From positions 64,001 to 128,000 of the forward strand of contig JAEOTP010000007.1 in NCBI GenBank assembly GCA_016839765.1: 64,000 bases of DNA, written 5' to 3'. Made by a program: the position numbers and the translations under genes. This DNA comes from Promethearchaeota archaeon. GTDB lineage: Archaea > Asgardarchaeota > Lokiarchaeia > Sigyniarchaeales > SOKP01. A model generated the notes under the pieces. It did no database searches. It was not told the DNA's origin and saw only the letters and a program-made list of their open reading frames with translations. Below, one piece after another: positions 14,461-16,445 of the stretch (its first letter is position 1; each line of letters opens with the position of its first letter).

Positions 14461-15333
14461 ATGGTCAATACCATGGCAACTGTTGAAGAAATTCAACAAA
14501 AATATGCGATTGTTGGAAGAACCGAAGAGCTGAAAAAATTAATATTAGCTCGATCTGTTGGAAAACATATTTTAATCGAAGGAGAAGTTGGAGTCGGAAA
14601 AACAACCGTTGCGCGAGCTATCTCTTCTTATTTCGATTCTGGCTTTTATAGAGTTGACTGTAATGAAGAGACTTTATCACATAATCTTGTTGGATATTGG
14701 GACCCCCCCTTAGTAATAGCAAAGGGCTATATAGAAGATTCTTATGTATTTGGGCCACTTGCTTCTGCTATGCTTAATGGAGGGTGTCTATTCATTAATG
14801 AAATAAATAGAATGCCAGAAAGCACTCAAAATTCTTTGTTAACTGCTTTGGATGAAGGAATTCTAGACATTCCTAAATTAAAAACTATTCGCGCCCATAA
14901 AGATTTCTTTGTTGTGGCAACCCAAAATCCTGCTGCTCATGTAGGTGTGACTGTTTTAGGAGAGGCTTTAAAAGATAGATTTATATGGGTTAAATTAGAT
15001 TACCAGAACCCTGAAGAAGAAATTTTAATTATAAAAAAAGAAGCAAACCTTCATGATTCGAATAGTGATAACGTGGCAAAAGTCTGCCAAAATATAATTC
15101 AAATGACACGAGAACTTACATCAATTCGTCGAGGTAGTTCAATAAGAGGTGCAATCGATCTTGCTGGATTGATTTCTAATTCTGGTAAAGAAAGTAGCAC
15201 CAAAAATTGGGTTGAAGCAGGTATTATGGCTTTATATAATAAAATCGAATTAGAAGATGGTGTAACTAGATCAAAGATAGAAATCATTACAGATATTATT
15301 CTTTCTACTTTAAATGAAGTGGATTTTCAATAA
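14461..15333 (+). CDS. MoxR-family AAA+ ATPase
   Basis: GEVGVGKT Walker A, FINEINR Walker B variant, ATQNP, ALKDRF. Confidence 0.9.
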   Translation: MVNTMATVEEIQQKYAIVGRTEELKKLILARSVGKHILIEGEVGVGKTTVARAISSYFDSGFYRVDCNEETLSHNLVGYWDPPLVIAKGYIEDSYVFGPLASAMLNGGCLFINEINRMPESTQNSLLTALDEGILDIPKLKTIRAHKDFFVVATQNPAAHVGVTVLGEALKDRFIWVKLDYQNPEEEILIIKKEANLHDSNSDNVAKVCQNIIQMTRELTSIRRGSSIRGAIDLAGLISNSGKESSTKNWVEAGIMALYNKIELEDGVTRSKIEIITDIILSTLNEVDFQ

Positions 15334-16445
15334 TCGATGATTTCTCTTCTAAAGATTCTGAAGAGATTGAGAATGAACGGTTGCACGTAAGATTAACAGA
15401 AAGGATCCCCGATAAGGATATTTTAAGATTCGAGATCATAAGAAAAAAAAAGAAAAAACCTGATTATTATCATCATTTAGCAGATTCATTGGATTATAAA
15501 CAAATTAAAGACTTAACCTTTTTAGCGATTGAATATAAAAATCTCGAAGCCATTATAGGGTTGCTTAAATCAAATGTGTACGCTGCTACAGATGCTTTAG
15601 ATTGTGATAAGGGCGTTAAATTCTTCTCGGAAAAGTCAAAAGATTCAGCAACCTCTATGGCGGAAGTTTATTTTTTCATAAGAAGACCTATCTCTGATAA
15701 ATATAAAAATGTTTTTAGGCGATTAGCCAGACAAAGTATACTAAAAACTTCTCTTAAAATAACAAGTAAAGGAATAAGAGGAAGTTACAAAAAAACAGTT
15801 CCATATTATGAGATAGGAATGCCTGAATTTGATATAGATGAAACTATACAGCATAACCCTCTAAAAATCCATCAGAGAAGTTTATCTTATAAAGATATTT
15901 ACGGTATTAAAAGAAAACAACAAAAGAGGAAAATCATTTTAATTCTTGATACGAGTGGAAGTATGTATGGAAAACTTCTTCTAAATGCTGCTTTAACGAC
16001 TTCGGTATTAGCTTATAACATGGAAAAAGAAGATTATGCAATCGTGTTATTTAACTCAACAGCCATGGTTTTAAAACATATTAATGAAAGAAAACTAATT
16101 ACAGCTATAATAGATGAGATTCTTGATTCTGAAGCAGTTGGTTTTACAAACATCCAAGTTGGCTTAGAAAAAGGATTGAAAGAATTAAGTAAAGTAAAGA
16201 AGAATCCAAGAAATCAATTTGGAATTTTAATTACAGATGGTAATTATAATCGTGGGGAAAAACCATTTGAATTGGCTAAAAAATATCCAAAATTACATGT
16301 AATAGGGATGCCCGCTGAAAATGATGCTGATAGGGGTATTGATACGTGTAAAGAGATTGCAAAAAAAGGGCGCGGCAAATTCTATGCTGTAAATGACTAT
16401 AAGGAAATTCCTAGGGCTTTAATTGAATTATTATCGAAAACATGA
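15333..16445 (+). CDS. VWA-domain protein, MoxR partner (start uncertain: ATA 15330, ATC 15333, TTG 15381, or a frameshift fusion)
   Basis: DTSGS MIDAS, FTNI, LITDG; frame is open back to 15318. Confidence 0.85.
   Translation: MDDFSSKDSEEIENERLHVRLTERIPDKDILRFEIIRKKKKKPDYYHHLADSLDYKQIKDLTFLAIEYKNLEAIIGLLKSNVYAATDALDCDKGVKFFSEKSKDSATSMAEVYFFIRRPISDKYKNVFRRLARQSILKTSLKITSKGIRGSYKKTVPYYEIGMPEFDIDETIQHNPLKIHQRSLSYKDIYGIKRKQQKRKIILILDTSGSMYGKLLLNAALTTSVLAYNMEKEDYAIVLFNSTAMVLKHINERKLITAIIDEILDSEAVGFTNIQVGLEKGLKELSKVKKNPRNQFGILITDGNYNRGEKPFELAKKYPKLHVIGMPAENDADRGIDTCKEIAKKGRGKFYAVNDYKEIPRALIELLSKT

Follow-up and report, generated by a model that had tools for sequence, protein, structure and literature searches.

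The window analysed here is a stretch of 64,000 nucleotides (nt) from a Promethearchaeota archaeon of the Lokiarchaeia (GenBank assembly GCA_016839765.1, contig JAEOTP010000007.1, positions 64,001 to 128,000), with a G+C content of approximately 30%. Its forward strand carries two overlapping open reading frames (ORFs), the first encoding an AAA+ ATPase and the second a protein with a von Willebrand factor A (VWA) domain, and an earlier note on this DNA had proposed that the two are joined by a programmed -1 frameshift at the heptamer GGATTTT. The features of the locus are collected in Table 1. The ATPase ORF ends in GTG GAT TTT CAA TAA, and both this 3' end and the heptamer within it had been read correctly in that note, as had the lack of a nearby ATG in the VWA frame: after the TGA that closes it, the -1 frame is open to position 16445, with its first ATG at about 15654 (approximately 336 nt in) and with a TTG as the only canonical startcodon among its first 110 codons. 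Because of this TGA, which sets the 5' limit, the change of frame is confined to 16 nt, and GGATTTT is the sole shift-prone stretch inside this interval. The predicted fusion would consist of ATPase residues 1-289 and a further 372 residues (661 amino acids (aa) in total), with NEVDF-SIIDDFSSK at the junction and ..SIIDDFSSKDSEEIENE as the peptide encoded past the slip site.

Table 1. Features of the ATPase-VWA locus, with coordinates counted in the window.
Feature	Coordinates	Strand	Basis or remark
AAA+ ATPase ORF, 290 aa (290 codons), zero frame, MoxR class	14461..15333	+	Pfam AAA_5 76 bits, AAA_3 68 bits
TGA that ends the -1 frame, two codons upstream of the heptamer	15315..15317	+	sequence read
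Putative slippery heptamer G_GAU_UUU	15321..15327	+	post-slip A-site tRNA-Phe would pair fully with UUU 15324-15326
Zero-frame stop TAA, 3 nt past the heptamer	15331..15333	+	sequence read
Near-invariant 25-nt block: heptamer, stop and TCGATGATTTC	15321..15345	+	alignment, 83 unique junctions
Weak hairpin, 7 bp TCTCTTC/GAAGAGA, 10-nt loop	15343..15366	+	15-16 nt past the heptamer, -8.2 kcal/mol
-1 frame after the predicted slip: linker, helical domain, VWA domain	15324..16445	+	372 residues
TTG codon	15381..15383	+	sole canonical startcodon early in the -1 frame
MIDAS motif D-T-S-G-S in the VWA domain	15948..15962	+	invariant columns D209-S213

The junction between the two ORFs was compared in 170 related loci from 20 Asgard families, consisting of 30 from the same genus or order, 80 from further species-level genomes (72-94% identity) and 60 from other families; after removal of identical junctions this left 142 unique -1 junctions with the motif. 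Relative to the ATPase, the VWA gene lies in the -1 frame in 161 of the 170 loci and in 18 of the 20 families, with 30/30 loci of the order, 80/80 of the further species of the family and 51/60 of the loci from other families. An in-register N_NNU_UUU is present in all 142 unique junctions (in one of them as N_NNU_UUC), where the first three bases of the heptamer are GGA in 83, AGA in 15, AAA in 13, GGG in 5, CCG in 4 and UGA in 2, the remainder being single cases. The form found in the window, G_GAU_UUU, is a -1 slippery site in dianthoviruses. The stopcodon of the ATPase follows the heptamer directly in 32 junctions, after 3 nt in 109 and after 6 nt in one. The final closure of the -1 frame is found 0-24 codons upstream of the heptamer, mostly at a distance of one codon, and in no junction downstream of the U-run; two junctions have this stop (UGA) coinciding with the -1 P-site triplet, which pins the shift to the Phe codon. 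The joint recurrence of phase, U-run and nearby stop in 161/170 related loci is more than chance, and the heptamer and -1 phase, whose conservation in orthologous loci the earlier note had advised checking, are conserved far outside the genus.

Two further -1 loci lack the motif adjoining the stop. In L160 the U-run is kept and the stop follows 18 nt later, inside a hairpin, and L112, from a family of the window's class, has no U-run and reads A_AAC_CCU, a canonical heptamer of another kind, followed by UGA; its mode of expression is ambiguous, as either a TTG overlapping the stop (TTGA) or a slip on A_AAC_CCU could serve. A second copy of the locus in one genome (L169 on a 2.9-kb contig of G097, with an estimated 11% contamination) resembles the copies of another family, and probably stems from contamination during binning and not from duplication.

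We also searched the 5' part of the VWA frame for startcodons. Among the 83 unique junctions of the window's family, 80 have no ATG, GTG or TTG within 45 nt past the stop and 62 have none up to +75, and an ATG is absent up to +120 in 78. The TTG at 15381 encodes the Leu of a conserved R-L motif, for which relatives use TTA, CTT or CTC, and is most likely a mere Leu codon. As an alternative to frameshifting, coupled initiation at the ATA/ATC codons of the junction had been suggested, and this was not supported, as these codons are not kept at that position in other families, which read TTA GGT, CTA AAG, CTA ACT and others. Database gene calls for the VWA protein vary in length from 294 to 367 aa. 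The zero-frame ATG within TCGATGA was considered as a start and rejected, since it is out of the VWA frame and arises incidentally from GAT-GAN (Asp-Asp/Glu) codons. A paralogous pair in the same genome, with an AAA_5 protein of 313 aa and a VWA protein of 830 aa (G000 contig C50:23500-28500, L031; most genomes of the genus have copies of approximately 830-860 aa), starts its VWA gene at an ordinary ATG, with a gap of 15 nt from the stop.

Naturally fused homologues, for which the earlier note had advised looking, do exist. An exhaustive profile search gave many single ORFs of 560-711 aa with an N-terminal AAA_5 domain and a C-terminal VWA module; a word-index search for longer homologues had found no fused form, a false negative in view of the many recovered by the profile search. 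One of these, P0149 (711 aa), is collinear with both halves: it is 50% identical to the whole ATPase, ending at the same ..DF, and after a 90-residue linker is 33% identical to the VWA part, and one fused cluster carries a name from Ca. Borrarchaeum. One Asgard family has uninterrupted ORFs of 717-732 aa in five genomes (L172-L176), reading ..FFR.. across the site, and in a sixth genome of this family (L177) the halves are split, the second starting at a GTG that overlaps the stop of the ATPase. The module is thus found in three states (recoded, fused and split), and their coexistence speaks for a fusion that works as a protein, and shows as well that its parts are able to function separately. 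A further family, with nine loci, carries the VWA gene in the +1 phase throughout, preceded by an invariant UUU UUU CGG (L130, L134, L135, L137, L138, L141, L144, L145 and L147, with the junction at about 1000-1500 in each). A Gly codon of the +1 frame constrains this CGG, and in L135 there is no ATG before +52. The VWA gene of this family may be either an ordinary separate gene or the product of a +1 frameshift at the U-run followed by the CGG codon.

The RNA downstream of the heptamer differs between the window's family and the others. Outside the window's family a hairpin begins exactly 10 nt past the heptamer, after an 8-nt spacer and GA, in most families. Its stability was scored per locus against 30 control positions in that locus's own genes, and was at or below the 5th percentile of the controls in 26/59 loci, and at or below the 10th in 31/59. 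The sequence of the arms changes between families with complementarity kept (GGAGG/CCUCC, GGAGAU/AUCUCC and AGGAAUU/AAUUCCU), further complementary pairs being GGGAAUUC/GAAUUCCC, UCCCGAG/CUCGGGA and GGGUGA/UCACUC. In a hand-picked seed of 16 sequences, 96.9% of the positions were paired, compared to 74.5% after shuffling and 32-69% in slid registers, with two-sided changes in five of six pairs; for the 78 unselected loci (43 distinct sequences) obtained with a covariance-model search, these values were 92.7%, 68.6% and 26-76%, with two-sided changes in all six pairs. The covariation score of the 43-sequence alignment was reached by none of 500 shuffles, although this alignment was fitted to the model, and hence leans its way, and its sequences are related, so that all these figures are to be read as support and not as probabilities.

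The hairpin outside the window's family is also flanked by recurrent dinucleotides. GA is present at +9/+10 in 36-40 of the 60 junctions, versus a background of 8%, and the arrangement GA-hairpin-GA(UGA) in 23-27 of the 60. A candidate canonical stem for a kink-turn is given by only two or three possible pairs, including G-U, between the stopcodon region and the UGA past the hairpin (columns 10-13/42-44), and its 5' strand would sit within the ribosome occupying the slip site. An L7Ae-binding kink-turn motif in these families is only partly supported by the sequences. Nearly all families use GAT for the Asp codon past the hairpin, which gives a conserved GAUGA (for example in L117, L120, L122 and L126, and at 15336-15341 in the window), and in L128 the Asp has been replaced by Asn (AAT), yet the AUGA is retained. 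The constraint on GAUGA looks as if it acts on the RNA rather than on the protein. A search of positions 15000-15700 of the window against Rfam gave no family match above chance. A kink-turn was also considered for the window itself and rejected, as the sequence there is TC-GA-TGA, in which the two GA's have no intervening hairpin.

In the window's family the GA and UGA join as if the hairpin between them had been deleted. Across its 83 unique junctions the 25 nt from the heptamer onwards are almost invariant, synonymous positions included: mean column identity is 0.98 over the 15 nt starting at the stop, and the third positions from +4 to +13 are 90-100% conserved, versus approximately 0.65 elsewhere in the ATPase and VWA genes. 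Further downstream, at offset 15, a UCUC..GAGA hairpin recurs in this family (dG -6 to -10.5, median control percentile 0.10), with a loop that varies through in-frame indels. In the window it pairs 15343-15349 with 15360-15366 as its minimum free energy structure, has a possible closing helix (15334-15337/15367-15370), and is at the 10th percentile of control positions in the same genes. The invariant spacer, this weak distal hairpin and the stopcodon are candidates for a stimulator in the window's family. With regard to the hairpin conservation that the earlier note had advised checking, within the window's own family there is only the weak structure at offset 15, and it is the other families that have a covarying hairpin at 10 nt.

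With regard to the proteins, the pair is a MoxR-class AAA_5 ATPase with a VWA partner bearing a metal ion-dependent adhesion site (MIDAS). The ATPase has GEVGVGKT as Walker A, and in its Walker B (near residues 110-117) h-h-h-Asn-Glu replaces Asp-Glu, this Asn being present in every orthologue with a detected motif (130 of 153 distinct proteins, the rest being cut or unmatched by the pattern). Among solved single-domain relatives, MoxR (2r44, 59 bits) is the closest, followed by NorQ and CbbQ. In the second ORF the Pfam VWA domain covers residues 206-365, and the MIDAS D-x-S-x-S (D209-S213) is invariant together with the distal T275 and D305 (alignment A1). The AlphaFold model of the VWA part has a mean predicted local distance difference test score (pLDDT) of 82, with the first 24 residues disordered (pLDDT <50), residues 30-147 helical, and residues 195-372 in an alpha/beta VWA fold, which is closest to BatB and to the NorD VWA domain of the NorQD complex. 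The linker past the site is acidic, variable and predicted to be disordered, and its indels are in-frame only, in agreement with the acidic linker noted earlier at the junction.

The MoxR identity given to the ATPase in the earlier note was borne out, but its link to the chlD family was not, with scores far under the cut-offs of those models: membership of the ChlD/cobaltochelatase families was rejected at 30.7 and 24.8 bits for TIGR02442 (cut-off 779) and 24.6 bits for TIGR02031 (cut-off 500), and the ATPase scores far beneath the cut-offs of the GvpN, ChlD and cobaltochelatase models. On another contig of the same genome a CobN gene (1269 aa) adjoins a single-ORF ChlD-type gene (658 aa, TIGR02442 707 bits; G000 contig C17:37500-52500, L186), and as this CobN has its own genuine ChlD alongside, the recoded pair is not the chelatase. 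A genome-wide Mg_chelatase search gave no separate ChlI-type small subunit. A relationship with midasin/Rea1 was also rejected: the E-value of the top PDB match (8e-39) adds up six AAA repeats, of which the best module scores 40 bits, below the 59 of MoxR 2r44, and the ordinary paralogue matches midasin as well. Neither was there a link to the upstream energy-coupling factor (ECF) transporter, as the neighbours differ among families without conserved context, and include a PhoU-type regulator, a 3'-phosphoadenosine 5'-phosphosulfate (PAPS) reductase, MoaA, Cdc48 and TFIIE-alpha.

At the RNA level, the locus can be compared with pea enation mosaic virus 2 (PEMV2), an umbravirus with the site G_GAU_UUU_UGG_UAG, at which re-pairing is complete for the A-site tRNA and limited to one pair for the P-site tRNA; blocking P-site re-pairing reduces but does not abolish shifting, which depends on a stopcodon 3 nt further on (PMC4737148; PMC5009743). 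Shared by the Asgard locus are the same non-canonical heptamer, the zero-frame stop 3 nt on, a downstream hairpin (weak in the window) and an only moderate contribution of P-site re-pairing, and in view of this matching layout the near-constant position of the stop therefore has a possible role. The two differ in that PEMV2 is a viral RNA on plant ribosomes which also uses a long-range 3' interaction, as opposed to an archaeal chromosomal gene.

At the protein level the closest precedent is fs-chlD (Antonov et al. 2013; Kuznetsov et al. 2022), in which an AAA+ domain, an acidic linker and a VWA module are likewise encoded in overlapping frames annotated as two genes, a -1 shift would yield a short ATPase and an ATPase-VWA protein, and in-frame fused relatives exist. 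The fs-chlD genes, however, belong to another protein family, for which the Asgard pair scores 25-31 bits versus cut-offs of 500-779, and use poly-A slippery sites, A_AAA_AAR with 7-11 A's (PMC3711429; PMC9227772), whereas the Asgard site combines N_NNU_UUU with a nearby stop and a hairpin; the Asgard archaea are also not among the clades given in these two papers. The NorQ-NorD (PDB 9qhd, 9qh6), CbbQ-CbbO and RavA-ViaA systems likewise place a VWA protein whose MIDAS is intact behind an AAA_5/AAA_3 ATPase, but these are separately initiated genes, while the Asgard VWA protein lacks its own start and would be joined covalently to a fraction of the ATPase subunits. For a cellular gene of archaea, a -1 frameshift with experimental support is that of fucA1 of Saccharolobus solfataricus, with the site A_AAA_AAU (PMC8211752). 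This is also a chromosomal gene with two overlapping -1 frames, a heptamer and a putative stem-loop, but is known from one species only and needs the shift for the whole enzyme, whereas the Asgard site is phylum-wide and would give two functional products.

We consider it very probable, at roughly 0.85, that the ATPase and VWA ORFs are one recoded gene expressed via programmed -1 ribosomal frameshifting, as the earlier note had proposed, and the comparison of loci supports this by the conserved phase, site and nearby stop, the lack of a conserved start, the covarying hairpin in most families and the in-frame fusions. Most ribosomes would read GAU UUU CAA and terminate at UAA, giving the free 290-aa ATPase, and a fraction would slip back one base on G_GAU_UUU, with tRNA-Phe re-pairing with UUU and the P-site tRNA-Asp re-pairing only partly. 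The slipped ribosomes would go on through the disordered acidic linker, the helical domain and the MIDAS-bearing VWA domain to give the 661-aa fusion; both the occurrence and the efficiency of the slip are inferred. Fusion subunits may then enter rings of the free ATPase and tether the VWA adaptor at a fixed stoichiometry, like ChlI/ChlD and NorQ/NorD, in which case one locus would make free ATPase and fusion at a set ratio.

Several observations weigh against frameshifting. Its support is of a comparative kind, the heptamer departs from the canonical X_XXY_YYZ, and 17 junctions have A or U as the first heptamer base, which leaves almost no pairing for the P-site tRNA. In the window's family the proximal hairpin at +10 has been lost, with GA abutting UGA past the 8-nt spacer, and the hairpin of the window lies 15-16 nt from the heptamer. 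The arms of this hairpin described in the earlier note (TCGAT/ATTGA and CTCTTC/GAAGAG) are present as sequence, but exceptional stability was not seen, as it folds no better than dinucleotide shuffles (z = -0.35, +0.34 and -1.68), and the closing helix TCGAT/ATTGA was rejected, its 3' arm being altered in many relatives without compensation. The +1-phase family has an ATG 10-13 nt past the stop in eight of its nine loci (MPKG..), and since its VWA gene has its own ATG, the pair can therefore work as two proteins; a variable phase with a normal ATG, which the earlier note had regarded as evidence against frameshifting, is however limited to this one family, with 161/170 loci remaining at -1.

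One alternative is that of two separate genes, with the VWA protein started at ATA 15330, ATC 15333, ATT 15366 or TTG 15381, or by re-initiation after the ATPase stop. A separately started VWA protein is viable in the +1-phase family and in one split member of the fused family (MPKG.. or VPKG..), roughly every second junction outside the window's family has an in-frame ATG, GTG or TTG within 25 codons, where separate initiation may take place, and downstream initiation occurred beside frameshifting in some of the test constructs of Antonov et al. (PMC3711429). We nevertheless regard this as improbable, as no candidate start is conserved, the TTG being a variable Leu codon, and no Shine-Dalgarno-like motif is present 5' of 15330, where the bases before GAT vary (TCG, GCG, ATG, TCA); moreover, separate initiation leaves the constant -1 phase, the in-register U-run and the sharp boundary of -1-frame stops unexplained. 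Still further down in likelihood, indeed very improbable in our view, is transcriptional slippage, in which RNA polymerase would stutter on the T-run and add one U to some transcripts. It would account for the conserved element being a homopolymer, with four T's in the window and 6-7 in several families, and is known to give fusions in some bacterial genes (PMC5009743), but four T's are far below the lengths known to support productive slippage (PMC5009743), and slippage needs no codon register, no stop 0-3 nt on and no covarying hairpin at a fixed 10 nt, all of which are observed.

Within the favoured reading of programmed frameshifting, it is conceivable, albeit doubtful, that the GA-flanked hairpin or the invariant 25-nt block binds L7Ae or another factor which sets the ratio of ATPase to fusion, a regulated and not a passive frameshift, of the type seen in eukaryotic viruses. 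The GA-flanked hairpin with GAUGA, which resembles a kink-turn core, lies exactly 8 nt on in approximately 45% of the junctions outside the window's family. If the ratio were set by a protein in this way, the archaea closest to eukaryotes would possess a frameshift stimulator that acts in trans on one of their cellular genes.

Programmed frameshifts in archaeal cellular genes are rarely documented: the archaeal cases in a 2021 review are fucA1, chelatase genes of methanogens and some viruses (PMC8211752), and full-text literature searches gave no paper on frameshifting in Asgard archaea. The Asgard case would be one conserved over most of the phylum. It would also mean that the VWA protein has been cut short at its N-terminus, at arbitrary starts, in hundreds of database entries, with the 661-aa product absent from annotation. 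The signal resembles sites used by eukaryotic ribosomes in its U-run heptamer, tolerant P-site pairing, nearby stop and hairpin at fixed spacing, and may serve as a natural reporter for whether Asgard ribosomes frameshift like eukaryotic ones. Finally, the recoded, fused and split states in sister families would provide a natural experiment on the tethering of only some AAA+ subunits to a VWA adaptor.

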